Positions 3,059-56,415 are shown, numbered from the stretch's first letter. The stretch is DNA of 64,000 nt from Candidatus Fermentimicrarchaeum limneticum (GCA_013426015.1 CP058998.1:724071-788070), one strand, 5' to 3'. The notes: generated from the letters alone by a model not told the origin. Numbers and translations are program-made.

Positions 3059-3061
3059 TAG

Positions 3062-8603: not shown

Positions 8604-12158
<3,555 letters not shown>

Positions 12159-13985: not shown

Positions 13986-13990
13986 AAGAA

Positions 13991-15454
13991 TCACTCGATT
14001 TTGACATTCATCTTTTTCAGAATGTTCTCCATGTTTCCCTCGTTGTCGCCGGTGGATATGTCGCAGAGCAGCGCCATGTTCTTCACCAGTGCGCATGACG
14101 GGCCTTCTGGGGATTCGTTCGGACACAGCTTTCCCCAGTGTGTCCCATGCAGGTCCCTTGCCTTGAAGTGCGGGTGCCTCCTGCTGAGGGGGGAGATTAT
14201 CCTCCTCAGATGCGAGACGGTGGAAAGGTAGTTCGTCCTGTCAAGCAGCTGCGAGACACCTGTCTGGCCCGCAATCCAGTTGCCCGTTGCCATGGAATAC
14301 CTGATCCTCTCAGTCAAGGCATCTGGCCTGACCAACGTCTGAATCACAAGCTTCCTTCCCCTTGCAGAAGCCCTCTCAACCTGATAGGCAATATCCTTAA
14401 TCAGGAATTGGAATGCATACCTGAACAGCTCTTCCATCAGATTCCCCGCGAGCTTTATCCTCTTGTTGGCATAATGGTCCTTGTCATCTGAAACTGTCTT
14501 GTCATACGCAACGTCTATCGCCTTCTCAGTCATCTTGCAGAGGTAATACGCCTTTGCAAGCCTCAGGTTGGGATCAACTCCTATGTGGGGGAGTAGGTAG
14601 TTGTCCAGGAGTATTTCCGCTCTCTTCAACTGGTATACCTTAGCCTGGCCAACAGCTGCCTTCTTGCCAATTGCCTCCAGCGCATTCTGCGTGTTGGTCG
14701 TCTGGTCGATCTCCATGTTGAGGAGCAGGTCATTCTGCACTTCCAGTTCACTGGCGAATGAATTTAGTATTGTCTGGTTGGGATGCAGGCCAAGCGCCCT
14801 CAGGACAGTAATGAGGTTCAGATCCTTGGGAGCAGCCGGGAACACCACTCTCAGCTCGCCATTCGTGGTTCTCTCGACAACACACCTTGCCCTGAAACCG
14901 AAGCGCGTTGAGAACACTTTTGAAGTGACAAGCGCTCCGTCCTTCTCCTTTGATACCATTATCCTGTTGGGAGCAAGGTCCTCTATGCTTACTAGGACCC
15001 TCTCACTTCCGTTTATCACGAAGTAACCGCCGGGGTCATTCGGGTCCTCTCCTGCCTCAATCAGCTCATCATCTGTCATGTTATCCAGATGGCACAGTTT
15101 TGATTTCAACATTACCGGCAGCTCGCCTATGAATACTTCCTGTGGGTATCTCCTCTCCACCCCGCCGATTATCTGTATGAATTCAAGGAAGACCGGTGCG
15201 GCGTACGTAAGGTTCCTCAGCCTCGCCTCTGCAGGGAGTATCTGCCTCCTGGAACCGTCAGCTTCAACTATTGCGGGCTTGTCCAGCCTCACCGCACCGA
15301 ATTTCAGCTTGTAGTTCTCGACATTCGGCTCTATTGCACCTATGCTGTTTATTATGTTCTGAATTCCGGATTCAACGAACTTGTTATACGAGTCCAGGTG
15401 CTGCAGGACTAGTTTATTATCCCTGAAATACTCGTCTACCAAGTCCCATTTCAT
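13991..15454 (-). CDS. rpoB2: DNA-directed RNA polymerase subunit B'' (N-terminal half of split RpoB)
   Basis: 487 aa, RpoB N-terminal domains; immediately upstream of rpoB'. Confidence 0.93.
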   Translation of the reverse strand: MKWDLVDEYFRDNKLVLQHLDSYNKFVESGIQNIINSIGAIEPNVENYKLKFGAVRLDKPAIVEADGSRRQILPAEARLRNLTYAAPVFLEFIQIIGGVERRYPQEVFIGELPVMLKSKLCHLDNMTDDELIEAGEDPNDPGGYFVINGSERVLVSIEDLAPNRIMVSKEKDGALVTSKVFSTRFGFRARCVVERTTNGELRVVFPAAPKDLNLITVLRALGLHPNQTILNSFASELEVQNDLLLNMEIDQTTNTQNALEAIGKKAAVGQAKVYQLKRAEILLDNYLLPHIGVDPNLRLAKAYYLCKMTEKAIDVAYDKTVSDDKDHYANKRIKLAGNLMEELFRYAFQFLIKDIAYQVERASARGRKLVIQTLVRPDALTERIRYSMATGNWIAGQTGVSQLLDRTNYLSTVSHLRRIISPLSRRHPHFKARDLHGTHWGKLCPNESPEGPSCALVKNMALLCDISTGDNEGNMENILKKMNVKIE

Positions 15455-15470
15455 ATTATCCCTTCAAAAA

Positions 15471-15707
15471 CTACTTCACAACTAGGCGGTAGTAAGTGTT
15501 CTCCCTTGTGGGATCCTTCCTAGTTATCTTTATTATGTCACCCACTTTCGCATCAAGCAGCTTCACCTGCGGGTCTGTAATTTTTATCTTCGGAAGCTTG
15601 TTTTCGTCCACTCCGAGAGATGAGAGCAGTTCCTCACGTCTGGATTTTGCCAGAACGTCGTGCTTCGGAACAAGAAAATGAGATAGACGAAAATCGGCAA
15701 GACCCAA
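15471..15707 (-). CDS. rpoH: DNA-directed RNA polymerase subunit H
   Basis: 78 aa, ...HFLVPKH... Rpb5-like; first gene of rpoH-B-A cluster; non-ATG start in ORF track. Confidence 0.85.
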   Translation of the reverse strand: MGLADFRLSHFLVPKHDVLAKSRREELLSSLGVDENKLPKIKITDPQVKLLDAKVGDIIKITRKDPTRENTYYRLVVK

Positions 15708-16044
15708 TCTACCACCTAACCAGAGCAGAGTTAACCTAGTATTTAGGTCGCCAAGCTTTTTAAAGTTATCGTTAGAAAAGCTACGCTAACAGCACTCTAC
15801 GGAAAATGAACACCTTTTCTACTCAAGCTTCAACCTTTTGTTTTGGAGTTTAGTTGCTCCTTGTATGTGACATGCCCACTTTCGTAGGCTTCCTGCTTCA
15901 TTGACGCTGCCTCTGCAGTATCTCTCTCCGTTTCGGAATTGCAGGCGTTACTTCCCGAGTGCCCCTCGGTAGTGAGTGTGATTTGCTCGAGGATGTATTT
16001 AAAGATAACTACGATAGATGACGAGTGTTATTTTTTATAGCTGA

Positions 16045-16401
16045 GTGTCCACAATGAATGCGATGGAGAAAGAGATTAAGAAAGAGGATGCTGTCAATAC
16101 AAAAACCAACCGCTACTCATTTAAGGACGAGAGGTACTTCTACTATCTTGTAAAGAATAGGTTTCATGAGGAGGAGCTGGAAGCTTGGATGGAGATAGGG
16201 AAGGAGATTAAGGAGAAGGGAAGCATAAGCAGGGTTGACGCCGAATTGATATTTCTTGAAAAGGTTAAGGATGACCCTGAAACTCTGAAGAGGAACTTCC
16301 CGAAAAGAATGAAGTATCTGGCAGAGAATAATGCTTTAGAGGAAAAGCCTTCTTGGGAGATGATCCCGAAGAAGAAGCTGATGAAGCTCAGGCTGGACTG
16401 A
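16045..16401 (+). CDS. Hypothetical small charged protein
   Basis: 118-aa ORF (GTG at 16045, ATG at 16054), Lys/Glu-rich, no recognisable motif. Confidence 0.4.
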   Translation: MSTMNAMEKEIKKEDAVNTKTNRYSFKDERYFYYLVKNRFHEEELEAWMEIGKEIKEKGSISRVDAELIFLEKVKDDPETLKRNFPKRMKYLAENNALEEKPSWEMIPKKKLMKLRLD

Positions 16402-16409
16402 TTTTAAAA

Positions 16410-16527
16410 CGCCGGGGGCGGGATTCGAACCCACGAGGACCTTTTGGGCCCAACAGCTTAGCAGGCTGCCGCCATTTAGTGCCGTACTCCTTTTTTAGAA
16501 GTTAGGGAACCACTAGGCGACCCCGGC
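16410..16527 (-). tRNA. tRNA-Ser (anticodon GCU) with ~32-nt intron inside the D-loop region
   Basis: Hand-fold: acceptor GCCGGGG/CCCCGGC+G73, anticodon arm GCAGC-CTGCTAA-GCTGT, long variable arm (GGGCC/GGTCC), T-arm GTGGG-TTCGAAT-CCCGC; 118 nt. Confidence 0.7.
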
Positions 16528-16553
16528 AGGTTGCAATATTATTTGTGCGTTGT

Positions 16554-16566
16554 ATTTAAATAAAAT
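16554..16566 (-). promoter_or_regulatory. TATA-box-like element upstream of tRNA-Ser(GCU)
   Basis: TTTATTTAAATA ~27-35 bp upstream of tRNA 5' end. Confidence 0.35.
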
Positions 16567-16676
16567 GATGTGCATAAATTTAGTGGTGGAGAATGGAAGT
16601 CACTGTAAAGGAAGCAGAAGAATTTAAAGTGTCCAAAGCAGTGATAGACCGAAACTAGCCACTATTATACTATAGT

Positions 16677-16980
16677 GCGGTGAGCTTCACCGGAATTGAT
16701 GGGGGCCCTCTCGCCCGGTTGTTCAGACATGGGCTGGACTTTGTGGCTTGCTAGCATGGACAATTCCACCCAGAGAGCGGATGCTCCCGTGATTTGTGTT
16801 TAGGGTTGCTCCTTCCGGCCTGGCCCGGTTCCCACGACCTTCCATCCAGCAAGGCAAAGCTTCAACGCTTGCGCCTGAGCCGAAGTGAGATGGCTCGAAC
16901 CTCTTCCAGCTTTTCGGTCTCACCGTGAAGGGGGTTTGTGATTACAGGAGACCCCTAACCTCCCGACCTATCTCACCGCA
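16677..16980 (-). ncRNA. Signal recognition particle RNA (7S/SRP RNA)
   Basis: Minus-strand CAGGCCGGAAGGAGCAACCCUAA resembles the conserved SRP RNA helix-8 motif; 5' GCGGUGAG pairs with 3' CUCACCGC; ~300 nt; no ORF. Confidence 0.6.
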
Positions 16981-17001
16981 GTTAGTATTATTCCTCGGAA
17001 G

Positions 17002-17010
17002 TTTAAATAG
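17002..17010 (-). promoter_or_regulatory. TATA-box-like element upstream of SRP RNA
   Basis: CTATTTAAAC ~25 bp upstream of inferred SRP RNA 5' end. Confidence 0.35.
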
Positions 17011-17070
17011 CTATTCGAAAGAAAAATAAGTCTCAAGAACGACGGCAGAAGTTCAAAAATAGGGAAAGGC

Positions 17071-17079
17071 TTTTAAATA
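17071..17079 (+). promoter_or_regulatory. TATA-box-like element upstream of the L3 ribosomal protein operon
   Basis: TTTTAAATA ~80 bp upstream of rpl3 ATG. Confidence 0.3.
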
Positions 17080-17157
17080 TCTCCTGCATAAGATTATTCC
17101 ACTCTTTTCTATGACTGAAGTCTGGGGTTTCCCGGCCCCCGTTCTAGAGGTCTTATT

Positions 17158-18147
17158 ATGGGAAAAGTGATTAAGCCAAGAAGCGGGTCTCGCGCGTTCA
17201 GACCGAGGAAAAGGGCGAGCAGGCAAAACGCTCGCATCACTAGCTGGCCGGAGTTTGAGGAGACAAAGCTTCTGGGTTTTGCAGGCTTTAAGGCAGGCAT
17301 GACGCACATCATCATGGTTGACGATTACGAGGGTTCACCGACAAAGGGTCACGAGGTTTCTGTGCCTGTGACTGTGGTTGAGACCCCTTCTCTTCTTGTT
17401 CTTGGTCTGAGGGCTTATTCTTCTGATGTTTACGGCCTGAAGTCTTTTTCTGATGTCTACGCGAACAACATCGACAAAAAAATTGCGGAGAGAATAAACC
17501 TCAAGAAGAATAATTTTGATGAAGTGATGAAGAAGGTTGAGGGAACTATTGATGCAATAAAGGACGTGAGGGTTCTGGCGCTTACTTCTCCTGAGAGGAC
17601 TGGTTTTGGAAGGAAGAATCCTGATGTGGTTGAGATTGCGGTCGGTGGAAAAACTCCAAAAGAGAAGTGGGAGTTCTGCAAGAGCATTCTCGGCAAGGAA
17701 GTCAAAGTGAGTGAAGTTTTCAGCGATGGCGAGTATGTTGATGCAATAAGCGTGACAAAGGGAAAAGGATGGCAGGGGGCAGTGAAGAGATTCGGAGTTC
17801 ACCTGCAGAGAAGGAAGGCAACAGGGAGGAGGAGGCACGTCGGCACGCTAGGCCCGTGGCATCCTGCTAGGGTGATGTACACCACCCCGATGGCGGGGCA
17901 GATGGGCTACCACAAGAGGACCGAGCTCAACAAGAGGATATTGAAAATCGGCGGGAAGGACGAGGCAAACCCAAAGGGGGGCTTCCTGAACTATGGAGTT
18001 GTGATGAACGACTGCGTACTCATAAAGGGTTCTGTCGGAGGCCCTTGCAAGAGGATGATAAAGCTGAGGAAGAGTATAAGAAAGAGCGTGAAGCCGGCAA
18101 AGCTGGAGATAAAATACATCTCGAAGAATTCAAAACAGGGTGCTTGA
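17158..18147 (+). CDS. rpl3: 50S ribosomal protein L3
   Basis: FAGFKAGMTHI... uL3 signature. Confidence 0.95.
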   Translation: MGKVIKPRSGSRAFRPRKRASRQNARITSWPEFEETKLLGFAGFKAGMTHIIMVDDYEGSPTKGHEVSVPVTVVETPSLLVLGLRAYSSDVYGLKSFSDVYANNIDKKIAERINLKKNNFDEVMKKVEGTIDAIKDVRVLALTSPERTGFGRKNPDVVEIAVGGKTPKEKWEFCKSILGKEVKVSEVFSDGEYVDAISVTKGKGWQGAVKRFGVHLQRRKATGRRRHVGTLGPWHPARVMYTTPMAGQMGYHKRTELNKRILKIGGKDEANPKGGFLNYGVVMNDCVLIKGSVGGPCKRMIKLRKSIRKSVKPAKLEIKYISKNSKQGA

Positions 18148-18148
18148 A

Positions 18149-18943
18149 ATGAAAGCTCACGTTTACTCAATTGACGGCAATCAGATGGAGGAGATAGAAC
18201 TGCCGCAGCATTTCAGCGAGGAGATAAGGGAGGAAGTGATAAGGAGGGCTGTGCTTGCCGAGCAGAGCAGGAAGTACCAGCCAAAGGGAGCGTTCAAGCT
18301 TGCAGGTTTGCAGACCAGTGCGGAGTATAGAGGCAGGAAGGAGGCATATGGAACCATAAAGAATAAAGGTATCTCAAGGCTGCCCAGGGAGAAGTTTCCC
18401 AAAGGAAGGTTCGGCAGAGTGAGGATAGTGCCGTTCTCAGCAAAAGGAAGGAGGGCCCACCCGCCCAACCCGAATGAGGTTCTGGTTGAGAGGATAAACA
18501 AGAAGGAGTACGAGAAGGCGATGAGGAGCGCCATAGCCGCAACTGCAAGGAAGGAGATTGTTGAGGCAAGAGGCCACAGGGTGAAGGGAGTGAAGGAGGT
18601 TCCGCTCATCGTTGAGAACAGGTTTGAGGAGCTTGACAAGACCAAGAATGTTCTTGCATGCCTCAAAGCTCTTGGAGTTGAGGACGAGCTTGAGAGGGCG
18701 AGGAGAAAGAAGAAAGTGAGCGGCGTCAGGGAGGGAAGGAAAGGCGGAAACATCAGACCAAAATCACTGCTCATAGTTGTTGGAAATGGAAGCAAGGTTG
18801 CGAGGGCGGCAAGGAACCTTGCTGGTGTTGACGTGAGAGGAGTTAATGACTTGGATGTGAGTTCGCTTGCTCCAGGAACGCACATGGGAAGATTGACCCT
18901 GTGGAGCAAGAGGGCTATTGAGGAACTTGGGAAGGTGAAATGA
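18149..18943 (+). CDS. rpl4: 50S ribosomal protein L4
   Basis: uL4 (L1e-type); ATG at 18149 (ORF track starts at GTG 18140). Confidence 0.93.
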   Translation: MKAHVYSIDGNQMEEIELPQHFSEEIREEVIRRAVLAEQSRKYQPKGAFKLAGLQTSAEYRGRKEAYGTIKNKGISRLPREKFPKGRFGRVRIVPFSAKGRRAHPPNPNEVLVERINKKEYEKAMRSAIAATARKEIVEARGHRVKGVKEVPLIVENRFEELDKTKNVLACLKALGVEDELERARRKKKVSGVREGRKGGNIRPKSLLIVVGNGSKVARAARNLAGVDVRGVNDLDVSSLAPGTHMGRLTLWSKRAIEELGKVK

Positions 18944-19191
18944 TGGTTTTGATTCACCCGATTGCAACGGAAAAGGCAATTGCGCTGATAGAGAAGGAGA
19001 ACAAGATGGTTTTCATAGTTGAGAAGAATTCAACCAAGAAGGAAATTGCTGACGAGGTTGAGAAGTCCTACGGTGTCAAGGTTGAGAAAGTGAACGTCCT
19101 TGTAACCGCAGACGGGAGGAAGAAGGCGTACGTGAAGCTGCAGAAAGGCTTTTCTGCAGATGAGCTCGCAGCCAAGTTGAAGATTATTTAG
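18940..19191 (+). CDS. rpl23: 50S ribosomal protein L23
   Basis: 83 aa uL23; 4-nt overlap with rpl4. Confidence 0.93.
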   Translation: MMVLIHPIATEKAIALIEKENKMVFIVEKNSTKKEIADEVEKSYGVKVEKVNVLVTADGRKKAYVKLQKGFSADELAAKLKII

Positions 19192-19200
19192 GTGGGATGA

Positions 19201-19956
19201 ATGGGAAAGAAACTTATACAGCAGAGACTTGGAAAGGGCTCTCCCAGTTTCAGGAGGCCATCAAGCAGATGCAAGGCTGATGTCGAGTACAGAAGTCTTG
19301 ATGAGTTCGAGAAGAGCGGGAAATTGAGCGGAGAGGTAATAGGCTTTGTTGATGATCCTGCAAGAAGTGCATTGCTCATGGAAGTCAAATTTGAGAACAA
19401 CGAGAGCAACATGCTCATAGCGCCAGAGGGCGCCATGATTGGAGATAGGATAGAAGTTGGAGCAGTGGCAGAGGTGCGAGCTGGAAATGTTCTCCCCCTA
19501 AACTCAATTCCAGATGGAATGCCAGTTTACGACATTGAGATAACTCCTGGAGATGGAGGCAAACTCGTTAGGAGCAGCGGAACTACTGCATTTGTTGTTT
19601 CTCATGAGGAAAGGCTTGTAACGGTTAGACTTCCTTCAAAGAAGCTGAAGGTGCTTGATGGAAGGTGCAGAGCAGAGGTAGGGGTGATATGCGGAGGGGG
19701 CAGGCTGGAGAAACCTTTCCTGAAGGCCGGCAAGAGGTTCTATGCAATGGGTGCAATGAACAGAAGATGGCCCAATGTGAGAGGTGTTGCAATGAACCCA
19801 TACAACCATCCATTTGGAGGAAAGGAGCACCACAAGGGAAGACCTTCCCCGGTTTCAAGAAGCACTCCGCCAGGAAGAAAGGTTGGGCATCTAGCCTCAA
19901 GGAGGACTGGAAGGAGAAGGGGAAAGAGCAGCGAGGATAGAGGTACGGGTGAGTAG
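19201..19956 (+). CDS. rpl2: 50S ribosomal protein L2
   Basis: uL2 motifs (...GRNxxG..., NPYNHPFGGKEHH). Confidence 0.95.
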   Translation: MGKKLIQQRLGKGSPSFRRPSSRCKADVEYRSLDEFEKSGKLSGEVIGFVDDPARSALLMEVKFENNESNMLIAPEGAMIGDRIEVGAVAEVRAGNVLPLNSIPDGMPVYDIEITPGDGGKLVRSSGTTAFVVSHEERLVTVRLPSKKLKVLDGRCRAEVGVICGGGRLEKPFLKAGKRFYAMGAMNRRWPNVRGVAMNPYNHPFGGKEHHKGRPSPVSRSTPPGRKVGHLASRRTGRRRGKSSEDRGTGE

Positions 19957-20352
19957 ATGGCGAAGAAGGTTCAATACAGAGGAAAGACTCTTGAGGATTT
20001 GAGGCAACTGACTGCTGACGAATTCTCAAAGCTACTCAAGTCAAGGGCGAGGAGAGCGCTGCGAAGAGCTTCAGTGCGCTACAGGAATCTGCTTGAGAAG
20101 GTGAAGAAAGTCGGGGGAGGGGAGAAGAACGACAAGGTTATAAAGACGCACGTGAGAGACGCAGTCATCCTGCCGGACTGGGTTGGTTTGAAATTTGGAG
20201 TTCATAATGGTAAAGAATTCAAACCTGTGGAGATAAAGATGGAGATGATAGGGCACAGACTTGGTGAGTTCTCCCACACTACGGGAAGAGTTGCTCACTC
20301 AGGTCCAGGAGTGGGAGCAACAAGAGGTTCCAAGTTTATACCATTGAAGTAA
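19957..20352 (+). CDS. rps19: 30S ribosomal protein S19
   Basis: uS19 sequence and operon position. Confidence 0.93.
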   Translation: MAKKVQYRGKTLEDLRQLTADEFSKLLKSRARRALRRASVRYRNLLEKVKKVGGGEKNDKVIKTHVRDAVILPDWVGLKFGVHNGKEFKPVEIKMEMIGHRLGEFSHTTGRVAHSGPGVGATRGSKFIPLK

Positions 20353-20358
20353 GGTGCG

Positions 20359-20805
20359 ATGATGAAGTACAGTTACCAATTCAAGGAAGGGGTTCGTGCG
20401 GCTAGGGCACAGGGGCATGATGTTGATGCATCATTCAAAGACTTAAGCCAGGTGTGTAGGAGCATAAATGGCAAGGAAATCTCAAAAGCAGTGCAATTGC
20501 TTGAGAGCGCAAAGCTTGGCGAGATTCCAATACTGTTCAAAAAATTCAACAAGAAGTGCGGCCACAGGAAGGAGCTCGGCGGAAGGAGGGGAAGGTATCC
20601 CAAGAAGAGCGCAAGGTTGGTTCTTGAGGTGCTGAGGAATGCGATGGCAAACGCGCGCAATATCGGGCTTGGCGAGAAGCTCGTTGTGAGGCACGCTTCT
20701 GCAAACAAGCAGAACATCTACCCGAGGATTGCATCTAAGGGAAGGGCGATGCGGGCGAATTACGAAACAGCCAAACTGGAGATAGTGCTTGAGGAGTTGA
20801 AGTGA
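20359..20805 (+). CDS. rpl22: 50S ribosomal protein L22
   Basis: uL22 sequence and operon position. Confidence 0.93.
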   Translation: MMKYSYQFKEGVRAARAQGHDVDASFKDLSQVCRSINGKEISKAVQLLESAKLGEIPILFKKFNKKCGHRKELGGRRGRYPKKSARLVLEVLRNAMANARNIGLGEKLVVRHASANKQNIYPRIASKGRAMRANYETAKLEIVLEELK

Positions 20806-20806
20806 T

Positions 20807-21475
20807 ATGGCAGTTGAAAGAAAATTCATAGAGGATTCAATAAGCAGGTACAAGCTTGCCAAGTACCTGGAGAAGGAGCTGGACAGGGCAGGCTTCTCCA
20901 AGGTGGAGATACAGAGGACTCCGATGGTGACTAGGATAAACGTTGACGTGACAAAGCCGGGCAAGGTGATAGGCAGGAAAGGGAAGACAATAAAGGATCT
21001 GACGGAATTCATACAGAATAACTTCGGAGTGGATAATCCGCAGATAAGCGTCTCTGAAGTGACTAATGAAAACCTAGAGCCGAGGCTTGTTGCAAAGAGG
21101 GTTGTGAGGTCGATAGAGAGAGGAGGGAATGTCAGAAGAATACTGCACTTTACGCTCAAAACGATAATGGATACGGGCGCTATGGGAGCTGAGATAATCG
21201 CAAGTGGAAAAATTGCCGCAAAGGGAGCGAGGGCGAGGCGCCTCAGGGTGGGGGCAGGATACCTGCCCAAGTCCGGCGAGCCTTCAAGACTTGTGAGGGT
21301 TGCCCATGTTACCGCATACCCGAAATTCGGTGCGATTGGTGTGCGGGTGAAGATAGTTCCCCCGGGAACAGTATTCCCAGACAAGGAGAAGGCGAAGCCC
21401 GTGGAGCTTCCGAGAGTGATAAAGGAGGCTGCCGCGGAAGAGAGTGAGGTAGATGGCGGTAGTGAGAGTAAGTGA
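20807..21475 (+). CDS. rps3: 30S ribosomal protein S3
   Basis: KH domain GRKGKTIKDL; uS3. Confidence 0.95.
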   Translation: MAVERKFIEDSISRYKLAKYLEKELDRAGFSKVEIQRTPMVTRINVDVTKPGKVIGRKGKTIKDLTEFIQNNFGVDNPQISVSEVTNENLEPRLVAKRVVRSIERGGNVRRILHFTLKTIMDTGAMGAEIIASGKIAAKGARARRLRVGAGYLPKSGEPSRLVRVAHVTAYPKFGAIGVRVKIVPPGTVFPDKEKAKPVELPRVIKEAAAEESEVDGGSESK

Positions 21476-40537: not shown

Positions 40538-41143
40538 ATGCCGGTATTCATAGACTCAAGGATTTGCGATAATCAGGATGTATGCGACGTTAAGAAGATC
40601 TGCCCGAGTAATGCAGTCTCGCTTGACAAAAAGGAAGGGATGATAATTGACAGTGCGAAATGCACAGGGTGCCTGCTCTGCCTGAAGGCTTGCCCTTACC
40701 TTGCCGTGAAGCTTGCCAAGGATGAGAATGAGCTTGCTGAGTTCAGGAAGAAGCTGAAAAGAGCCAAGCTGGACAGAAGGGCGCATATCGCAAAAATCTA
40801 CGGGACAAAGCTCGGCAGGGTCGGGAGGGTACAGCTTAAAGATTCTAATTTCAGGAAGAAGGTTGACTCGAAAGTGCCAACGTTGGTCGTTTTCTGGGGG
40901 GCCCATAGCGGGGTCATGGCTCCTCTGCTGAGGGAGGCTGGCAGAAGGCACAGGAACAAGCTGAGGGTAGCATACGTAAAATTTGCTGACAACCCAAAAA
41001 CTAGCAAGAAATACGCAATAGCCACCACCCCCACCCTTGTGCTTTTCAGGGAGGGGAAGGAGATCGGAAGGCTGGATGGGATAAGACACCGGGAGACTCT
41101 GAGGGTGTGGATTGAGACGAAACTGAAGCCTAGTCCTTCTTGA
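40538..41143 (+). CDS. 4Fe-4S ferredoxin domain fused to a thioredoxin-fold domain lacking the CxxC active site
   Basis: N-terminal CTGCLLCLKACP motif; C-terminal thioredoxin-like region with WGAHSG in place of WCxxC. Confidence 0.55.
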   Translation: MPVFIDSRICDNQDVCDVKKICPSNAVSLDKKEGMIIDSAKCTGCLLCLKACPYLAVKLAKDENELAEFRKKLKRAKLDRRAHIAKIYGTKLGRVGRVQLKDSNFRKKVDSKVPTLVVFWGAHSGVMAPLLREAGRRHRNKLRVAYVKFADNPKTSKKYAIATTPTLVLFREGKEIGRLDGIRHRETLRVWIETKLKPSPS

Positions 41144-42083
41144 ATCTCTTGCGCAGCTTTGACGCAACAATGAGGAGCAGTATAAGCACTACTGTTACAA
41201 GCGCGGACTGTTCTATTCTGAACGACTTTTCAAAACCCAGAAGTATAGCAAGTATGAGCACCGGGTAGTTTAGCACAAATACCAACAGGGCGGACTTCCC
41301 AAAATCCTCAAGGATGCCTGAGGAGATTCCTTTTAGCTCAACGACCCAGTAAACCAGGACAAGGAATAGGACGCAGAATCCTGATGAGAGCAGCACATAA
41401 GGCAGCGTGCCTACGTTTCGGTCATACTCAATAAATCTGCTGAGCAGGAATCCTGCTAGCGTGAGGAGGATGCCCAGCTTGGCGAAGGATGGCAGGGCGT
41501 TCTTCTTCCTCTTCATAAAATACTCCCCGCTCATATAGCCTATGAGCACGATGGAGCTGAGCGAGATTGAACCCAAAAGACCTCCGTTGGGGAAAGAAGA
41601 GAGGAGGGCATACGCCGCAGGGATGGAAGTCAGATACGAATAGCACAGCCCCACTACTAGTATCGCAAGTATTTTCATATTATCTGAAAAGCAGATGAAG
41701 AACATTGCAAAGAGTCCAGACATGCTTATTGCTTCCAACACCCACCAGATCCTTTGCACAGAAGCTATGAGCACTATGTCAAGCAAAAAACCAAGGGCAA
41801 AAATCTTTGAGTACCTGATTAGGACATGCTTTATTGCATCCTCCTCGCTGACCCCTCCCTTTTTTCTGTTGTAGATTGATACGCAGATGGATACTCCTGA
41901 GATGAACAAGAACAACGCAATGGCCATATCTCCTATTGAGATAACACTTCTTACACTGTATACGAGAAGCGGAAGCGGGTCTGAGGGGAAGATGTTCACA
42001 AAAAAGTGAAGTAGGACCATGAAAAGGACCGCTATGCCTCTGTAGACATCAACCCAGCGGTATCTCATGAGGATGATAGGCAT
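41130..42083 (-). CDS. Multi-pass membrane protein of unknown function
   Basis: 317 aa, ~9 hydrophobic segments; family assignment uncertain. Confidence 0.5.
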   Translation of the reverse strand: MPIILMRYRWVDVYRGIAVLFMVLLHFFVNIFPSDPLPLLVYSVRSVISIGDMAIALFLFISGVSICVSIYNRKKGGVSEEDAIKHVLIRYSKIFALGFLLDIVLIASVQRIWWVLEAISMSGLFAMFFICFSDNMKILAILVVGLCYSYLTSIPAAYALLSSFPNGGLLGSISLSSIVLIGYMSGEYFMKRKKNALPSFAKLGILLTLAGFLLSRFIEYDRNVGTLPYVLLSSGFCVLFLVLVYWVVELKGISSGILEDFGKSALLVFVLNYPVLILAILLGFEKSFRIEQSALVTVVLILLLIVASKLRKRFKKD

Positions 42084-42102
42084 TGCAGGTTATTAATATT
42101 TG

Positions 42103-42150
42103 ATGGGGCCAGAGTGCATTAAACTTCAAGTTTTTGGATTGGGCCATAGG
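42103..42150. repeat. att-like repeat A: partial copy of the tRNA-Trp 3' end plus shared ~45-bp motif
   Basis: ATGGGGCCAGAG 12-mer identical to the plus-strand image of the tRNA-Trp 3' end at 45555-45566; ~85% identical to repeat B. Confidence 0.6.
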
Positions 42151-42232
42151 ATTTTTAAGAAATTAATAAGAAAGTAATTAATTCTAAGACAAGCTCCTTC
42201 TGGCTATTCTAGTCCTGTCAAGTAGATGACAA

Positions 42233-44743
42233 CTATTTTATTACAAAAACAGTTGCAGTCTTCTCATCCTCATCTGGCAGAGCATCTGAGTAAATCTCTC
42301 CCTTAAAAGTATGAATTTTTAAAAGCTCAACATTTCCTTTTTCGAACTTTTCTTCTGCGTATGGAGTTGCATCACTATAGGTGGTTCCCAGAATGACTTT
42401 CTTGAAGCCAGCCTTCTCTGCTAAATCCTTGACAAAACCGATCGAGGCTTCGTATATCTCATTCGTATTCTTGTAAGAGCTTGTTATGTTTATGGAATCT
42501 ATTATCAGAGTGGATTCACCCCCGATCTTGCCTGCGAAGAGCCATGCCTGCCCGATTCTCTGTTCTTTTCCTTCTTTTGTTATGGATATCTCGGCTATTT
42601 GAGTCGCAGCATCCATCATGTAGATAGGTAGAGTCCACCTGTTACCTCCATTAAAAGCAACACAGCAACCCGAATCGTTCCCGTTTGTCAAGGCAGTCAA
42701 CGGGTTTTTATCACTCAATTTCACCGAGATTATAATCTCCCCTGCTTCGCCTTTCATCGGCTTCACAGGCATGCCGAGCAATCTTTCAATCTCCTGAACA
42801 TGGAATAGGGCAGTTCTAGCCTCGCCTTTAATCTCCTCTGAGTCTACTACCATCGAACCAGGCGTTCCTGTGGTCTTTAGATACTTCTCAAGCACCGACA
42901 CTGCTTCCTTTGACCATTTTTTATCATTTGACAGCATCATCTCAATTATTGCCTTTGCTCTCTCCTCTGGGGTTTTGTAGTCCCGTGCATCAAGAGAGGT
43001 CAGTTCCGCAAATACCTTTCCCGGCTTCTTGAAAACCTCCCCTTTCGGGTTGCTGAAAAGCTGCATCACCACATCCTGGAACGTATCATTGATGTGCTCC
43101 TCTCCTGCCTCCAGCTTCTCAATTCCTGTTAATGTTTTCTTGAAGACTACTTTGTCAATCCCCTTGTAGTAGACGTAGACATCGGTATTTATTCCAAGCT
43201 TGTTCATTTCTGTGAGTGCTTGCTTATTCTCTTCTAGTGAGTCGTAGTACTTTTGGAAGGTGTTTTCAAGCCCGTACTTTATGAGTATCCTTACTTCCTC
43301 GTTTTTTTCAATAAAATCTAAACCAGATATCATTTTGATAAGATATTCCTTCTGGTCTTGGGCTATTTTTTCAAATGGGAATTTCACATCTTCCGCTATT
43401 TTCTTAGCGCCTAGGTCAATAAGCTGTGCAGAGAAGTCCTGCAGCTTGAGCCGGGAGAGCTCTTCTTTTGAGAAATTGGGTATATAACTAATAAGACGGG
43501 GATTTTTCAACAGACTAGTCACAGCAGAACTTAAATCTTGCATTGTTAATCTTTTTCCCTCTGTTTGTGTTAACAGCGCACCTAACACCTTTTCTCTCTC
43601 TCCCCAAGATTCAATAAACCCCTCCTCTTTTAGTTTTTCGTTTAACAAGTCTTCTAATTTTTTAATTTCTGATATCCACCCACTCATTTCTTCTTTGGTT
43701 TTTATGATTCCCTCCATTGCTAGATTTACAAGATTCCCTCTAATTTCAAAATCATAAAAGATATCGCAGGCTACATCTGCCACCTTTGCCCTTTTTTCAA
43801 TCTCTGGCACCCAGTCTCTCAGTTCCTCAACGGTTTTTGCCACTCCTGTTTTTACTAGTGAATCCAAATACTTCGAGCCTATTTGCCGCGTGGATGAATT
43901 AGCAGAAATAAGTTTGAAGTCTAACTCATCGTATACGCGGTCTAATCTTTTTATATGGCGTACGTCGGATTCATATAATTTCACTAGTTTTTTAAGGTCT
44001 TCTGAGGATTTTACCATGTCTTTTTTTACCAATTCGGGTAGATGGTTGCGGCATACGTACTTACCCCATAAATCATTAAACTTGAAGTCTCTCAATAGGT
44101 CTGCTTTTGCTAGGTTTGGGAAAACAAAGGATATGGGCAACCCACCGAGCTCTCTTCCATGATATTCTGCGTCCCGTGTTAATTCATGTAGTTTGACTAT
44201 TGCGTGTAAGTCATTCGGGGATTTTATCACTCCCTTATCCAACATAAGTTGTAGACTGTCTCCCCACATGATATTGCTGATAGTGATTAGTTCTAAACCG
44301 CAGCACCCTAAGTCATTCGGGGATTTTATCACTTCTTTCTTTCCTAGTTTCGAAATAAATTCATCCAGATCTATCGGTCCAACTGAGATTCCTTGATGCT
44401 CGGAAAGATATTTATGCAATCCGATCAGCTTTTTTCCATACCTTTCCAAATCTTCCGTGTCTTTTATCAGACCACTCTCTCCAAGCAGTAGGAAACCTCT
44501 TTCGAAATTCATCCAGTAACGTCCAGGTTCTGATAACTCGTATAATTTATGCAGGGCTGTAATGTTTTCAGGTGTGACCTTAAGGCGCATTCCTTTCAGT
44601 ATTCTCTCGTGAATCTCTCTTTCATAGGAGGGGATTTTCGCCAGCTCCCTCTTCATTCTCTGCTCAGGGATTTCAGGCTTTATGCGCTCTGTTTCTACTG
44701 GCTGCTCGGCAGGCGCTTCAATGGGTTTCAGCTTCTCTGGCAT
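42233..44743 (-). CDS. Large hypothetical protein (836 aa) with internal tandem repeat
   Basis: No recognisable catalytic motif; 105-bp direct DNA repeat (~44207 and ~44312) encodes duplicated (V)IKSPNDL segment; no signal peptide. Confidence 0.5.
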   Translation of the reverse strand: MPEKLKPIEAPAEQPVETERIKPEIPEQRMKRELAKIPSYEREIHERILKGMRLKVTPENITALHKLYELSEPGRYWMNFERGFLLLGESGLIKDTEDLERYGKKLIGLHKYLSEHQGISVGPIDLDEFISKLGKKEVIKSPNDLGCCGLELITISNIMWGDSLQLMLDKGVIKSPNDLHAIVKLHELTRDAEYHGRELGGLPISFVFPNLAKADLLRDFKFNDLWGKYVCRNHLPELVKKDMVKSSEDLKKLVKLYESDVRHIKRLDRVYDELDFKLISANSSTRQIGSKYLDSLVKTGVAKTVEELRDWVPEIEKRAKVADVACDIFYDFEIRGNLVNLAMEGIIKTKEEMSGWISEIKKLEDLLNEKLKEEGFIESWGEREKVLGALLTQTEGKRLTMQDLSSAVTSLLKNPRLISYIPNFSKEELSRLKLQDFSAQLIDLGAKKIAEDVKFPFEKIAQDQKEYLIKMISGLDFIEKNEEVRILIKYGLENTFQKYYDSLEENKQALTEMNKLGINTDVYVYYKGIDKVVFKKTLTGIEKLEAGEEHINDTFQDVVMQLFSNPKGEVFKKPGKVFAELTSLDARDYKTPEERAKAIIEMMLSNDKKWSKEAVSVLEKYLKTTGTPGSMVVDSEEIKGEARTALFHVQEIERLLGMPVKPMKGEAGEIIISVKLSDKNPLTALTNGNDSGCCVAFNGGNRWTLPIYMMDAATQIAEISITKEGKEQRIGQAWLFAGKIGGESTLIIDSINITSSYKNTNEIYEASIGFVKDLAEKAGFKKVILGTTYSDATPYAEEKFEKGNVELLKIHTFKGEIYSDALPDEDEKTATVFVIK

Positions 44744-44791
44744 GGTTGAATTATGCCCTTTCTAGCTATTAAAATTATGCTAAAATCAGGA

Positions 44792-44840
44792 GTGGGGCCA
44801 GAGCCGATTAAATTTCAGGTTTTTCATTTGGGCCCATAAA
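44792..44840. repeat. att-like repeat B: partial copy of the tRNA-Trp 3' end plus shared motif
   Basis: TGGGGCCAGAG 11-mer identical to tRNA-Trp 3' end; ~85% identical to repeat A. Confidence 0.6.
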
Positions 44841-44877
44841 TTCCCGCTTTGAGGTATGCAAAATAAAAAAAATTAGA

Positions 44878-45477
44878 CTACTGGCAGCAGTGGAAAGGTT
44901 TGCTGGTGTAGGATGGATCGGCAACTCTATTTGCACCACACTCGTCTGGCAGGTTTTGGACTACAATTGGCATTATTTGACCGCCAGGACTAAGCCACTC
45001 GTTGGACCACTCGCCTCCGGTTGGGATGGTGATTGCTCCAGCATGGCATGCGCCATAAAGTTGCGGTATGTCACACAAAGTCTTGTTTTCACTCTGGCAT
45101 TGCGCCATAGAATCATCTATTGACTTTGCACTATTTGAAGAGGTGTCTATGCAGAAAGCTCCTGCCCTTGTCATATCAGTAGGACATGGAAGTTGGGCTA
45201 TAGTTACTGCTGGACCAGGATTTCCTTGGGATCCTTGCGGTCCGGCTGGCCCAGTATCTCCTTCTGGACCTTGGGGTCCCACCGAACCTGTATCGCCTTT
45301 AGATCCCTGAGGTCCTACATCACCTCTTGAACCTTGGGGTCCTATTGGACCAGTATCGCCCTTCGGACCCTGCTGTCCGGTATCACCCTTCGCTCCTTGC
45401 GGTCCTGCGGGACCTACCTGTGTGCAACCGGCAAAAAACAGCGCTACAATCAATAAGACAATTAAGAGCCTTCTCAT
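44878..45477 (-). CDS. Collagen-like (Gly-X-Y repeat) lipoprotein with Cys-rich C-terminal domain
   Basis: Signal peptide plus lipobox-like [18 protein letters not shown]; ~25 uninterrupted G-X-Y triplets; C-terminal ~110 aa with 8 Cys. Confidence 0.65.
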
Positions 45478-45555
45478 TACCTTCACCCCCAATTATTTAG
45501 TTAGGGCTTTTTAATATATGCATTAGTCAAGATAATCCTTTATAAGATAAATGTA

Positions 45556-45722
45556 TGGGGCCAGAGGGATTTGAACCCTCATTAACAGGTGTCTCATAAA
45601 GCATCTCATCCTTTGTCAATGCTCCAATTCTAAATCATCCCCGAAGGTCATTCCACCTGTAACAATGCTCCTCTACAAAAGGAACTGGAGCCTGTTGTTC
45701 TGCCAAGTTATACCATGGCCCC
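45556..45722 (-). tRNA. tRNA-Trp (anticodon CCA) with ~90-nt intron at or near the canonical position
   Basis: Hand-fold: acceptor GGGGCCA/TGGCCCC+A73, anticodon stem ACAGG/CCTGT with loop CTCCAG..., T-arm GAGGG-TTCAAAT-CCCTC; 167 nt precursor. Confidence 0.7.
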
Positions 45723-45753
45723 TTGCAGAGTTATTTTGAAAAATCAGATTTAA

Positions 45754-46911
45754 TTACTTTGCTATCTTTTCCACTTTCTTGACTATCTCCTCCAGAACCA
45801 TCTTGTCAAATCCCTGATTCACTCTCAGCCCGGCAGCTACGTCATGCCCTCCTCCGCTGTCAATCGCACCTTTCATCTCGCTTTTCAACTCTGAGATAAG
45901 CTGGTTTGCATTGAATCCTGCTTCCTTCGCTTTTCTGTTCGCCCTAAAGTGCATCATCCGCTCCCCGTATCCGACAGTAACAAGCGGCGCATTTAATTTC
46001 TTGTCAAAGTCATCGTGGACCTCGCCGGTTATCTTGCCCCTTCCAGGAAACTCGCCAGACCTGAACTTGTCAAGCCTAAGCAGCACCAGCTTGAAACCAT
46101 TATCGAATTCCTTCAGCTTCGAGTATCTGGCCGCATCCTTCTTCACACGCTCTATCTTCTTCATTGCTCGTTTGTAGATTGACTCCATCTTATTCTGGTC
46201 CTTGAGTATTGAATAGTATAACTCAAGGCTCTCCGCAAAATCCGAGCTTGATGCTACAAAATCAAGCACAAGTGCTTTGTGGTTCAGCTCACCTTCTGGC
46301 AGCTGGATGAGCCTGCTCTTGTCACCTATCAGGGCGATTTTCTGGAACTCTTCAAGTTCGGAGGAGTAATCAATCTTCTTGGCTATCTCCCCCGCAATAA
46401 AGCCGGCGGAATAGTCTGAATTGCCGCCGTGCAGCCATGGCGATACAAGCAGGTCCGCTGCCCGGGTGACTTCTTCCTGCAGCGGGTGATGGTCTGCTAT
46501 GAGCAGCTTGAAGTTGGAGTTCTTCAACGCCTTCATCGAGTCTAGGCTCTCGGAGTTCACAGAGAAATCCAGCAGAATCGCCAGCGGAGGCTGTGAAGGT
46601 TGCATATTCCTTATGAGCTCTATATCATCCACAACAGCACCAAGCCCGTATATGGCGGAGGGATTTTTGAAAATGAGCGTCCGTCTCCTCTGTCCCTCCC
46701 AAGCCTTGTTGCCGACCAGCCCCTTAATTGAGAAGTAGATGGACAGCGCGGCGCATATCCCATCGCAATCCCCGTGGTATCTCATAAGAATGGGGCTTGC
46801 TGCGTTCACTGCGGTCTTTATAATCTCTGCAGCACTTTCAAAATCCGTTCTCATCCTATTCAGGACTTCGTCTGAGTTGATAAAGGCGGCTATGTCATCT
46901 GTGTTGGGCAT
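45754..46911 (-). CDS. DHH-family phosphoesterase (RecJ-like / NrnA-like)
   Basis: HGDCDG and DHH motifs; DHHA1-like GGGH near C-terminus; ATG at 46911. Confidence 0.75.
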   Translation of the reverse strand: MPNTDDIAAFINSDEVLNRMRTDFESAAEIIKTAVNAASPILMRYHGDCDGICAALSIYFSIKGLVGNKAWEGQRRRTLIFKNPSAIYGLGAVVDDIELIRNMQPSQPPLAILLDFSVNSESLDSMKALKNSNFKLLIADHHPLQEEVTRAADLLVSPWLHGGNSDYSAGFIAGEIAKKIDYSSELEEFQKIALIGDKSRLIQLPEGELNHKALVLDFVASSSDFAESLELYYSILKDQNKMESIYKRAMKKIERVKKDAARYSKLKEFDNGFKLVLLRLDKFRSGEFPGRGKITGEVHDDFDKKLNAPLVTVGYGERMMHFRANRKAKEAGFNANQLISELKSEMKGAIDSGGGHDVAAGLRVNQGFDKMVLEEIVKKVEKIAK

Positions 46912-46969
46912 GATATGATTACGCAAAGGGATATTAATATTTGAGGAGTAATGGTTTAAGGTGATTGAG

Positions 46970-47227
46970 ATGGATGCGAGGGTAGTAAACTACAGGAGGG
47001 GTAAGCACAACGAATACACCAACCAGTATGTAGTTGCCATAGACGGCATGACAAGCAAGGATGAGGCCCTCAAGTATGTTGGCAAGAAAGTCGTATGGAA
47101 GACACCAAGCGGAAATGAGATAGTTGGCAAGATCACAAACACCCATGGGAATGGCGGGGCCATGCTTGCGAGGTTTGGTAAGGGGCTGCCCGGCCAGGTA
47201 TTGGGAAGCATTTTGAGTGTGGAGTGA
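46970..47227 (+). CDS. rpl35ae: 50S ribosomal protein L35Ae
   Basis: ~85 aa, eL33/L35Ae-like; ATG 46970. Confidence 0.75.
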   Translation: MDARVVNYRRGKHNEYTNQYVVAIDGMTSKDEALKYVGKKVVWKTPSGNEIVGKITNTHGNGGAMLARFGKGLPGQVLGSILSVE

Positions 47228-54086: not shown

Positions 54087-54595
54087 ATCGGCTTCAAGAA
54101 CTATTAGGAGTGAGCGTATTGATGTTCGCTTACCTTGCACTCACACTTTTTCATTCTCGTATCATGGAACGAAAATTTAAGGAGGTGATCTATCCGCAGG
54201 TTCCCCTACGGATACCTTGTTACGACTTAGCCCCTCTCATGACGAATTAGCTCGACGAGATCCGAAGGGATCCCGCCTCACTAAAACTTCATTTGAGTGA
54301 CTTGACGGGCGGTGTGTGCAAGGAGCGGGGACGTATTCACCGCTCGATGTTGACAAGCGATTACTAGGGATTCCAGCTTCATGAGGGCGAGTTTCAGCCC
54401 TCAATCCGAACCTAGGCCGAGTTTGGGGATTAGCTCCTCCTCTCGGAGTGGCAACCCATTGTCTCGACCATTGTATGCCACGTGTAGCCCGGGAGATTCA
54501 GGGCATACTGACCTACCGTTGCCGTCTCCTTCCTCCTGTTTAACACAGGCAGTCCCAACAGAGTGCTTCATCTCCGGAGAGATGAATAGCAACTG

Positions 54596-55105
54596 TCAGC
54601 GACGGTCTCGCTCGTTTCCGGACCGCATGAGTGCTTTTTTTACTTCGGAGTGCTTCATAGAATCCTTGACAAAAACAATGAATTCCCTTGGAGTCATTAT
54701 TGCCAGCCTTCCTTTGATGAATCTGGTTCTGAAGCCCAGAAGCTCAAGTAGCATCTGGTCCTTGTACGAAGCACGCGCCAGGTAAGGCGTGTCCCCCTCT
54801 ACCCCGCCGCAGGAATCGAACATCCCTGCAACGTATGAGGAGGAGTATCTGTTCCTTTTCCTGAAAACATCTATTTGATTCTTCTCAGCTCCCTCAAAGA
54901 ATGTCCTGTACGCTGAATGATAGAAGTACACGTCCCTGTCAGTCATCTGTATCTTCTCTGGAGGAATCTTCAGCGTCTTCATTATTTCTTTCAGGAAAAT
55001 CTCCCTGATCTCTCCGCTGCCTCGTATTCCGATTCCACTGGGAACCCTCCTTCCTTTCCATAAACCTATTAGGTATGCCAGTTCAGGCGTCATTTTAATT
55101 CTCAT
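54596..55105 (-). CDS. LAGLIDADG-like homing endonuclease ORF encoded in the 16S rRNA intron (motif 1 degenerate)
   Basis: Two LAGLIDADG-type motifs (LAYLIGLWKG lacking acidic residues; YVAGMFDSCGGV); ORF 3' end runs ~22 nt into the downstream exon. Confidence 0.6.
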   Translation of the reverse strand: MRIKMTPELAYLIGLWKGRRVPSGIGIRGSGEIREIFLKEIMKTLKIPPEKIQMTDRDVYFYHSAYRTFFEGAEKNQIDVFRKRNRYSSSYVAGMFDSCGGVEGDTPYLARASYKDQMLLELLGFRTRFIKGRLAIMTPREFIVFVKDSMKHSEVKKALMRSGNERDRR

Positions 55106-55147
55106 TCTCTCACTCCAAAACGGATGCACTCATGCGATTTACCGGAC
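54618..55147 (-). mobile_element. 16S rRNA intron (archaeal bulge-helix-bulge type) carrying an endonuclease-like ORF
   Basis: Insertion between GGUUAAGUCCGG and AACGAGCGAGACC; flanks GCAUGAGUGC / GCACUCAUGC can pair; GUCCGG duplicated at both junctions. Confidence 0.8.
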
Positions 55148-55287
55148 TTAACCGGACACTTCACAGCACGAGCTGACGATGGCCATGCACCACCTCTCGG
55201 CTCGTCAGGTAAGATCTTCAGTCTGACCTTCATACTGCCGTCGCTCCCGGTGATATTCCCGGCGTTGAATCCAATTAAACCGCAGCA

Positions 55288-55330
<43 letters not shown>

Positions 55331-56415
55331 ACCTTGCGGCCGTACTCCCCAGGCGGCAGACTTAACACTTACGCTACGGCACTGCCACAGCACTAAGCTA
55401 TGGCAACACCACAGTCTGCATAATTTACTGCTAGGGCTACTCGGGTATCTAATCCGATTCGTTCTCCTAGCCTTCGTCCCTCACTGTCGGACGCGTTTTG
55501 GCCAAGCGCCTTCGCCACTGGGAGTCCTCACAGGATTAACGGATTTTACCCCTACCCCGTGAGTACTCTTGGCCTCCCCCGCTCCCAAGCCCGTCAGTAT
55601 TCTCTGCACTCCTTCAAGTTGAGCTTGAAGATTTCACAGAGAACTTAGCGGGCCAGCTACGGACTCTTTAAGCCCAATATTCGTGGATACCACTCGAGCT
55701 GCCGGTGTTACCGCGGCGGCTGTCACCGGTCTTGCCCAGCTCTTATTCCGCAAGCTCCTTAAGCTTACGAAAAGATGCTCGCGTGGAGCATCACTCAGAA
55801 TCCCCTCGTCACGCTTTCGCGCATTGCGAAGGTTTCGCGCCTGCTGCATCCCGTAGGACTGGAGCCCTTGTCTCAGTGCTCCTCTGGGGGCGCCAACTCC
55901 CATTGCCCCCACCGATTATCGGCTTGGTGGGCCGTTACCCCACCAACTACCTAATCGGAAGCAGTCTCATCCTAAGGCAGACATGGCTGCATTTCGCCAC
56001 GCTGTTTGGGCTATGAAGCTTTCCAGCATCCATAACCTATGTGGTATTAGCCTCAGTTTCCCGAGGTTATCCCCCTCCTTAGGGCAGATTGACCACTCGC
56101 TACTCAGCCGTATGCCACCCCTCCTTGCAGAAGGGGTAGACTTGCATGGCTTAGTCGAATTCTGATAGCAGTACCCTCCAGCAGGATCAACTGGAATTAG
56201 AGCACACTATTCTTCCGCAAGTTCGGCGAAAAGACACCACTATCGCTCACTTCTCCTGTTCTTGAAGCCAGAGTCAAATCCAAACAAGCTTGGATTTCCA
56301 TCGATATTATGCGCTATAGAGGAAGGGTATATCTCACAGCACGAAATAGAATTCGCGCTCCATTTACGCCGTAATCTACAGCGTCCGCACGGCGAAAGAA
56401 GATTATGCACTCTCT

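Follow-up and report, generated by a model that had tools for sequence, protein, structure and literature searches.

A 64-kb stretch of the genome of Candidatus Fermentimicrarchaeum limneticum Sv326, a member of the Micrarchaeota (DPANN), was analyzed around a tRNA-Trp gene that is followed by two genes, each of which ends at a partial copy of the tRNA 3' end. This stretch (64,000 nt, with positions counted from its first letter) is hereafter called the window, and all window features given with coordinates below lie on its minus strand. Read along that strand, the order is a gene for a DHH/RecJ-like phosphoesterase (45754-46926; the upstream neighbor of the tRNA), tRNA-Trp, a gene for a collagen-like lipoprotein, repeat B, a gene for an 836-amino-acid (aa) protein, repeat A, and a gene for an Acyl_transf_3 membrane protein, beyond which lie a convergent ferredoxin-thioredoxin (Fer4-thioredoxin) gene and then ProRS. 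An earlier note on this DNA, made from the sequence alone, had given the order from the tRNA to the membrane protein gene correctly, and had read the two genes as the cargo of tandem integrations that duplicated the tRNA 3' end.

The tRNA-Trp(CCA) gene (45556-45722; Rfam tRNA model, 43.6 bits), the proposed attB/attL target, consists of exon 1 (45685-45722), an intron (45591-45684), and exon 2 (45556-45590). It was missed by ARAGORN under default settings because of the intron, and was recovered by Rfam and by aragorn -i, which, with introns allowed, reports a tRNA of 73 nt with a 94-nt intron after position 38. A full cloverleaf is predicted by both, so that the tRNA is intact at the proximal junction. 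Syntenic loci, numbered here with the prefix L, were reached through homologs of the neighboring RecJ-like protein; in L006, L007, L009, L012, L013, and L020, tRNA-Trp likewise adjoins the DHH/RecJ-like gene and likewise contains an intron. The 94-nt intron, kept in every relative examined, contains two copies of GGAGCATTG that, by eye, are complementary to GCUCCA of the anticodon loop. Archaeal tRNA-Trp introns are known to contain a box C/D guide RNA with complementarity of this kind.

The last 11 nt of tRNA-Trp, CTCTGGCCCCA (45556-45566), comprising the last 3 nt of the T-stem, the 3' strand of the acceptor stem, and the discriminator A, are the first of three exact copies of this core that share one strand within 3.5 kb. 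The second copy, in repeat B, lies at 44793-44803 and the third, in repeat A, at 42104-42114; in terms of the integration described below, the three correspond to the attL junction, the attR junction of insert 1, and the attR junction of insert 2, respectively. Together with the T at 42103, the core of repeat A forms the 12-mer ATGGGGCCAGAG, which occurs exactly at 42103 and 45555 and with one mismatch at 44792, in agreement with the recurrence originally reported. With up to one mismatch allowed, 0.47 occurrences of the 12-mer are expected by chance in 64 kb, and three or more were found in 1 of 100 shuffled sequences. For tRNA-Thr and tRNA-Ala, the only other tRNAs of the window, the 3' terminal 11-mer occurs just once in it.

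The cores of both A and B are preceded by a related arm of ~36 nt. The arm of repeat B, TATGGGCCCAAATGAAAAACCTGAAATTTAATCGG (44804-44839), the putative element-side P arm, is matched by the arm profile with an E value of 2.5e-14, and that of repeat A is part of a longer conserved block, CCAGAAGGAG..TGTCTTAGAATTAATTACTTTCTTATTAATTT..TATGGCCCAATCCAAAAACTTGAAGTTTAATGCA (42115-42203), with relatives in other genomes. An ungapped alignment of repeats A and B covers 42 nt at 81% identity, a lower and shorter match than the ~85% over ~48 bp estimated at first; the resemblance to the tRNA T-arm that had been noted past the 11-nt core lacks statistical support, the arm profile matching the tRNA 3' half with an E value of ~0.9 only. 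A clear 19-nt identity to the tRNA is seen solely at a separate site in L009 (4999-5009). The repeat B arm with its right flank is 94% identical over 97 nt to the attR of an integrase-bearing element in L007, and L009 5894-5991, located behind an unrelated gene, matches the repeat A arm at 86% identity over 102 nt. The extended A-type arm is also present in L010, L011, L012 (twice), L013, and L018, and homology between the window and both L006 and L013 restarts at 42102, directly past core A. In the ten aligned arm-and-core sites, the shared blocks are AATTAATTACTTTCTTATTAAT, ATGGGCC, AAAAACYTGAARTTTAAT, and the core, and the gene upstream is different in nearly every case.

The ten sites are distributed over eight genomes, and the genes upstream of them encode proteins of 836, 1054, 337, 219 (on the opposite strand), and 586 aa, as well as a GT2-HAD protein. 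Wherever a tRNA is in view (the window, L007/L018, L009, L012, and L013), the sites lie downstream of tRNA-Trp; the sequences of L010 and L011 stop before any tRNA. A profile built from four arms was searched against the window and ~220 kb of related loci, a set that does not include L013-L020. All strong matches (E <= 3e-10) were downstream of tRNA-Trp wherever the tRNA was in view, and no further copy was found in either the window or the related loci. The motif is accordingly no generic intergenic element of the kind that would have undermined the first interpretation. A scan with the exact pattern AAACYTGAARTTTAATNNNCTCTGRCCCCA of a collection with one genome per species (185,579 species) returned one site in each of three Micrarchaeota metagenome-assembled genomes (MAGs) and none elsewhere, and a scan of a metagenome collection with the arm-and-core pattern returned a single locus, L013.

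Insert 1, the collagen module, occupies 44804-45555 (763 bp counting core B). Its gene (44878-45477) encodes a protein with a signal peptide and lipobox (...FFAGC), ~23 G-X-Y triplets (Pfam Collagen, 5e-14), and a Cys-rich C-terminal domain. The matches of this protein in PHROGs are all to the collagen repeat and are uninformative on its origin.

At the left end of insert 2, a sequence referred to here as promoter X, CTCCTGATTTTAGCATAATTTTAATAGCTAGAAAGGGCATAATTCAACC (44744-44792), reaches to the ATG of the 836-aa gene and, with a TATA-like AT-rich box ~27 nt before the ATG, may act as a promoter. The same sequence stands behind a tRNA-Trp-type core in L006, L007, L011, and L012, ahead of different genes (blastn and a table of the junctions). 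The 836-aa gene (42233-44743; the product is 100% identical to Sv326_0859) encodes a conserved N-terminus, MPEKLK..RIKPEIPEQRMKRELAKIP, followed by helical repeats of the form G-[VL]-IKSP-[NE]-DL and a C-terminal domain with the GNAT fold, the only domain modeled with confidence. A 30-nt repeat in this gene (44207-44236 and 44309-44338, 102 nt apart; 22-25 nt exact in its core and 93% identical over 30 nt) encodes VIKSPNDL and is part of the degenerate helical-repeat series, the number of units varying among homologs of 716-1054 aa. A short inverted repeat, GTTGTCATCTACTTGACA (42216-42234), overlaps the stop codon. It was found by reading the sequence, belongs to the repeat family D4 of L001, is kept after homologs of the gene in L001, L003, L012, and L018, and is a possible terminator. 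PHROGs were uninformative for the 836-aa protein, and PADLOC gave only a marginal match to AbiEii (E 0.0055). For two proteins of the window, a look-up by exact sequence returned no entry.

Both cargo genes stand out in composition, as the earlier note had suggested checking. Among 52 open reading frames (ORFs) of at least 150 aa in the window, GC content at third codon positions (GC3) is 0.57+-0.06; the collagen-like gene (0.40) and the 836-aa gene (0.44) have the two lowest values, and the overall GC content of the latter (0.416, z -3.4) is the lowest of all. The profile searches likewise proposed produced the Collagen match described above, and every check suggested in the earlier note gave a result in favor of its reading.

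Homologs of the 836-aa protein in another Micrarchaeota lineage abut the 3' end of tRNA-Glu(CTC). In L001, a perfect 29-nt direct repeat (6426-6454 and 12935-12963), consisting of the last 12 nt of tRNA-Glu(CTC) and a trailer hairpin, encloses 6.5 kb that encode an mTERF-like repeat protein, a B3_4 protein, a 342-aa protein, and a 942-aa homolog of the 836-aa protein; no integrase was found in this segment. This arrangement is evidence that tRNA-linked islands carry the family with them. The possibility that the 836-aa protein is itself a new recombinase, raised by the position of its homologs beside tRNA-Glu with the 29-nt repeat, was ruled out given that its only confident domain is the GNAT fold. 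Also in L001, a 66-nt module (a hairpin and GACGCAGTCTTTATAAA) stands behind three genes (7994-8059, 9923-9988, and 12826-12891). In L003, a 152-aa TPR-like gene (2823-3281, minus strand) lies between tRNA-Val(CAC) and tRNA-Glu(CTC), the same two tRNA genes that are adjacent in L001, and is a further case of one gene inserted behind the 3' end of a tRNA.

The original chromosomal flank (41130-42103; the right side of attB) consists of TCAAATATTAATAACC behind core A, a promoter-like box, and the membrane protein gene (41130-42083; Pfam Acyl_transf_3, 3e-11), and the same acyltransferase flank is preceded by arm and core in L013, L012, and L018. An empty site, with tRNA-Trp followed directly by this gene, had been predicted, and it was found in L020, a Micrarchaeia MAG (NCBI GCA_038871515.1) with a RecJ-like protein 59% identical to that of the window. 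There, tRNA-Trp ends in ...TCAAATCC CTCTGGCCCCA and is directly followed by TTATTAAATATTAATAACC, which corresponds to TCAAATATTAATAACC, and by the genes for the acyltransferase, the ferredoxin-thioredoxin protein, and ProRS, in the same order as in the window. Because this flank directly abuts the tRNA, the 3,452 bp at 42104-45555 are an insertion relative to L020, bounded by the cores. A second empty site, for insert 1, is found in L006, where the RecJ-like neighbor is 95% identical to that in the window and the tRNA core is followed by the sequence that in the window follows core B. The blocks of homology between the two loci span window positions 46998..45556, 44803..44741, and 42102..41572, so that the 763-bp collagen module is precisely absent from L006.

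Other relatives carry different occupants at this site. L007 and L018 are parts of one 84-kb contig, in which the RecJ-like protein is 72% identical to that in the window and an 8.5-kb element separates tRNA-Trp from a nearly identical copy of repeat B. The distal end of this element reads ...GATGGGCCTTCTCCAGAAACTTGAAATTTAATCGG CTCTGGCCCCA CTCCTGATTTTAGCATAATTTTAATAGC... and is followed by a gene for a 1054-aa homolog of the 836-aa protein. The stop-codon hairpin recurs at the end of this gene and is followed by an A-type arm, a decayed core, CTCTGGCCCA, and the acyltransferase flank. In the close relative L013, genes for proteins of 116 (a zinc ribbon), 407, and 586 aa lie between tRNA-Trp and the A-type arm, core, and acyltransferase. 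L012 (MAG Sv174) and L009 contain arrays of two or three core-bounded modules, and in L009 an A-type arm stands behind an unrelated, oppositely oriented lipoprotein gene. The ends of a 337-aa gene in L012 (4794-5807, minus strand) are those of the 836-aa gene, with its promoter and first nine codons (MPEKLKKPE) on one side and its 3' hairpin and arm on the other, but the sequence between them is unrelated: the gene has had its interior replaced.

The element in L007 also provides an integrase. Its 423-aa tyrosine recombinase gene (Pfam Phage_integrase, with a weak XerA-like NCBIfam match) starts 46 nt past tRNA-Trp, and the element further encodes an Mrr-like nuclease, an SNase-LTD protein, and others. 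Integrases of this family sit directly behind other tRNA genes, including tRNA-Arg(TCG) in L016 (anticodon assigned by eye), and an integrase-side arm, T(C/T)TAACCTCAAGTA, is common to L016 and L007; no distal repeat was found for the integrase element of L014 or of L016 in the flanking DNA examined. On the 730-kb Micrarchaeota-type contig of L014, the integrase-linked region behind a tRNA (12448-21281) contains a dnd cluster (DndB-E, phosphorothioation) and an AAA_13 ATPase, from which it follows that elements of this integrase family carry defense systems.

We interpret repeats A and B as attR-type junctions left when the 3' end of tRNA-Trp was twice, in succession, the target of site-specific integration, a reading to which we assign a probability of about 85%. 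It draws on direct repeats identical to the tRNA, a regenerated tRNA, unoccupied attB sites in relatives, an integrase-bearing occupant in one of them, variable content between conserved junctions, and the foreign composition of the cargo genes, and the tandem duplication of the tRNA 3' end that had first been proposed is supported by the empty sites, the L007 integrase, and the composition. As the window encodes no integrase of its own, the inserts are classified as integrase-less remnants and not as complete elements: the integrase is lost or acts in trans, and the elements are decayed or trans-dependent. An incoming element would carry an attP consisting of the arm, ATGGGCC-N8-AAAAACYTGAARTTTAAT-N3, and an 11-nt core identical to the end of tRNA-Trp. 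Strand exchange inside the core, by a tyrosine integrase like that of the 8.5-kb element in L007, would regenerate the tRNA at the proximal junction and leave the arm and a second core copy beside the old chromosomal flank at the distal one. Because the regenerated tRNA end would permit renewed entry, a tandem array could grow with the oldest insert farthest from the tRNA, in which case the 2.7-kb 836-aa module would be the older insert and the 0.76-kb collagen module the younger. The corresponding attB junctions would be tRNA-Trp joined to CTCCTGATTT and to TCAAATATT, and those of the attP circles would be arm and core joined to TACATTTATC, CTCCTGATTT, and TTTAACCTCAAG.

Several observations weigh against this interpretation. 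A tblastn search found no integrase gene or fragment anywhere in the 64-kb window, as the earlier note had observed by eye, and none of the 24 integrase clusters returned at E <= 1e-10 bears the Sv326 name. The identity of the core to the tRNA extends over only 11-12 nt, and the arms show conservation comparable to that of coding DNA, so that they may also function as, for example, a terminator or an upstream promoter region. The 836-aa module, together with the A-type arm, decayed core, and acyltransferase flank, is shared with the relative whose RecJ-like protein is 72% identical, which implies long vertical inheritance, and the module, no recent arrival, is not demonstrably mobile now. In L006, a gene for a 224-aa SpeE-like methyltransferase replaces both the 836-aa gene and repeat A, and core A is missing; because the borders of this replacement and of the one in L012 lie off the cores, homologous or illegitimate recombination must also shape the locus. 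The collection of 185,579 species does not include Sv326, so that a census of the motif in the organism's own genome lies outside that scan. Scans of viral contigs produced 0 hits for arm and core, with no free or circular form of attP, and no match for the C-terminal domain of the collagen-like protein, the 836-aa family, or the L007 integrase, and hence no evidence that these elements are viruses.

The alternative with the greatest weight, although we consider it unlikely overall, is a hypervariable locus maintained by homologous recombination, in which the conserved flanks (tRNA-Trp and promoter X on one side, the A-type arm and acyltransferase on the other) serve as homology arms for gene replacement and the cores are old, irrelevant scars. 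Such exchange would account for the outer flanks shared at 92-97% identity by the window, L013, and L006 around unrelated genes, for the 337-aa gene of L012, in which the promoter, first 9 codons, and 3' hairpin and arm of the 836-aa gene enclose a foreign body, and for a window without an integrase; it leaves unexplained, however, the origin of the duplicated tRNA 3' ends, insert boundaries that fall exactly at the cores, and the integrase-bearing occupant of L007. Homologous recombination is more plausible as a second process, at work on an array already made by site-specific integration. Less probable still is integron-like capture, in which single-gene cassettes that end in arm and core would be individually inserted at and excised from the tRNA-Trp 3' end by a trans-acting DPANN tyrosine integrase and expressed from a promoter adjacent to the tRNA; if it held, genome-reduced episymbionts would own a dedicated device for swapping envelope, surface, and defense genes. 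In keeping with cassettes, single-gene modules are bounded by cores in the window (collagen), L009 (104 aa and 219 aa), and L012 (337 aa), the A-type arm stands behind at least six different genes, and one left-end promoter precedes different genes. Against this, the arms of A, B, L009, and L012 form no attC-like or stable single-strand structure (folding z -0.57 to +1.16 on both strands), the AAACTTGAAGTTT palindrome shows no covariation, and no integrase lies beside the array, the gene upstream of the tRNA being the DHH/RecJ-like phosphoesterase. In addition, the sole integrase seen lies within an ordinary multi-gene element of 8.5 kb, the modules bear AT-rich promoter-like boxes of their own, and no module was seen at two unrelated loci.

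The two remaining explanations dispense with integration. That A and B are copies of a common terminator or promoter motif that resembles the tRNA over 11 nt by chance would suit their positions, each between a stop codon and the next promoter, and the coding-level conservation of the arms. We regard it as very improbable, because the profile recovered no more copies in the sequence searched, all copies with a tRNA in view are downstream of tRNA-Trp with a single site per genome in three other MAGs, and, as seen from the empty sites, the motif is gained and lost together with the inserts. Least probable of all are genes for a small structured RNA or a tRNA-like molecule (a mini-helix or tRNA half) downstream of tRNA-Trp, a notion encouraged by the potential of GGGCC at the start of the arm to pair with GGCCC in the core and by an AT-rich box ~25 nt upstream. 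Rfam yielded no match at A or B even at E <= 1 (elsewhere, it returned the tRNA itself and one sub-threshold match to a snoRNA model inside the 836-aa coding region), folding energies are no different from those of shuffled sequences (z near 0), and core mutations in L009, L012, and L018 are uncompensated in the arm. Specific readings of A and B as a box C/D small RNA, a tRNA half, or a mini-helix were ruled out by sequence reading, Rfam, and folding.

Under the preferred reading of successive site-specific integrations, the locus resembles known systems in several respects. Archaeal integrases commonly target tRNA 3' ends, and intron-containing tRNA genes are known as targets in Thaumarchaeota (PMC8371274). 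As in archaeal elements with non-split tyrosine integrases (the classical, pNOB8- or SNJ2-like type), the insert is flanked by direct repeats identical to the 3'-distal part of the tRNA, the tRNA is reconstituted, the integrase gene lies beside the att site in the intact relative L007, and the core is very short, 11-12 bp here compared with 14 bp at the tRNA 3' end for SNJ2 (PMC5861418). Unlike in those elements, the host belongs to the Micrarchaeota (the term 'DPANN' occurs 0 times in the review PMC8371274), both inserts in the window are without an integrase, and at least 8 genomes have a strongly conserved element-side arm of ~36-90 nt.

Cis-mobilizable elements (CIMEs), known from Streptococcus islands related to ICESt1 and ICESt3, have kept their att sites and lost the genes for recombination and transfer, and often stand in tandem with a related element (PMC5704250). 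The window similarly retains both att junctions, with two inserts and three cores in tandem at one target and no integrase, and the tandem of an integrase element and an integrase-less 836-family module in L007 fits CIME-like accretion. CIMEs are, in contrast, a bacterial concept linked to conjugation; no transfer functions are known here, and mobilization in cis is hypothetical. The locus is like an integron cassette array in that most of its modules consist of one gene and are gathered at one recombination site, that each module has a related, recombination-site-like repeat at its end, that a tyrosine recombinase is implicated, and that the cargo is highly variable between close relatives; it differs from such arrays in that there is no attC-type fold and no integrase adjoining the array, the repeat mimics a tRNA 3' end, and the modules seem to have their own promoters.

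Elsewhere in the window, the 16S rRNA gene (54180-56197) spans 2018 nt compared with the 1478-nt Rfam model, an insertion of ~540 nt. The insertion, probably an intron of the rRNA with a homing endonuclease, contains a 177-aa ORF (54596-55129) that has, by eye, the LAGLIDADG-like motifs LAYLIGLWKG and SYVAGMFDSCGG; no Pfam match was obtained for this ORF.

The genomes of DPANN archaea, Micrarchaeota among them, are very small, and few mobile elements have been described from these organisms. Neither this locus nor any tRNA-targeted element in Micrarchaeota turned up in a search of the literature. The locus adds an example from DPANN archaea to a well-known class of systems and does not overturn current understanding. 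It represents a working-type hot spot of site-specific integration in a Micrarchaeota lineage, with its parts identified: attB, as seen in the empty sites of L020 and L006, a conserved element-side arm, an 11-nt core, and a candidate tyrosine integrase family. Across relatives, the cargo at this site includes collagen-like and Cys-rich lipoproteins, small membrane proteins, a GNAT-domain protein, and a glycosyltransferase, with an Mrr-like nuclease and an SNase in the integrase element; because this cargo differs between close relatives, the site likely exchanges surface and defense traits. The arm-and-core motif marks the boundaries of islands in MAGs, and the att sequences, together with the integrase, are a possible starting point for genetic tools in DPANN archaea.

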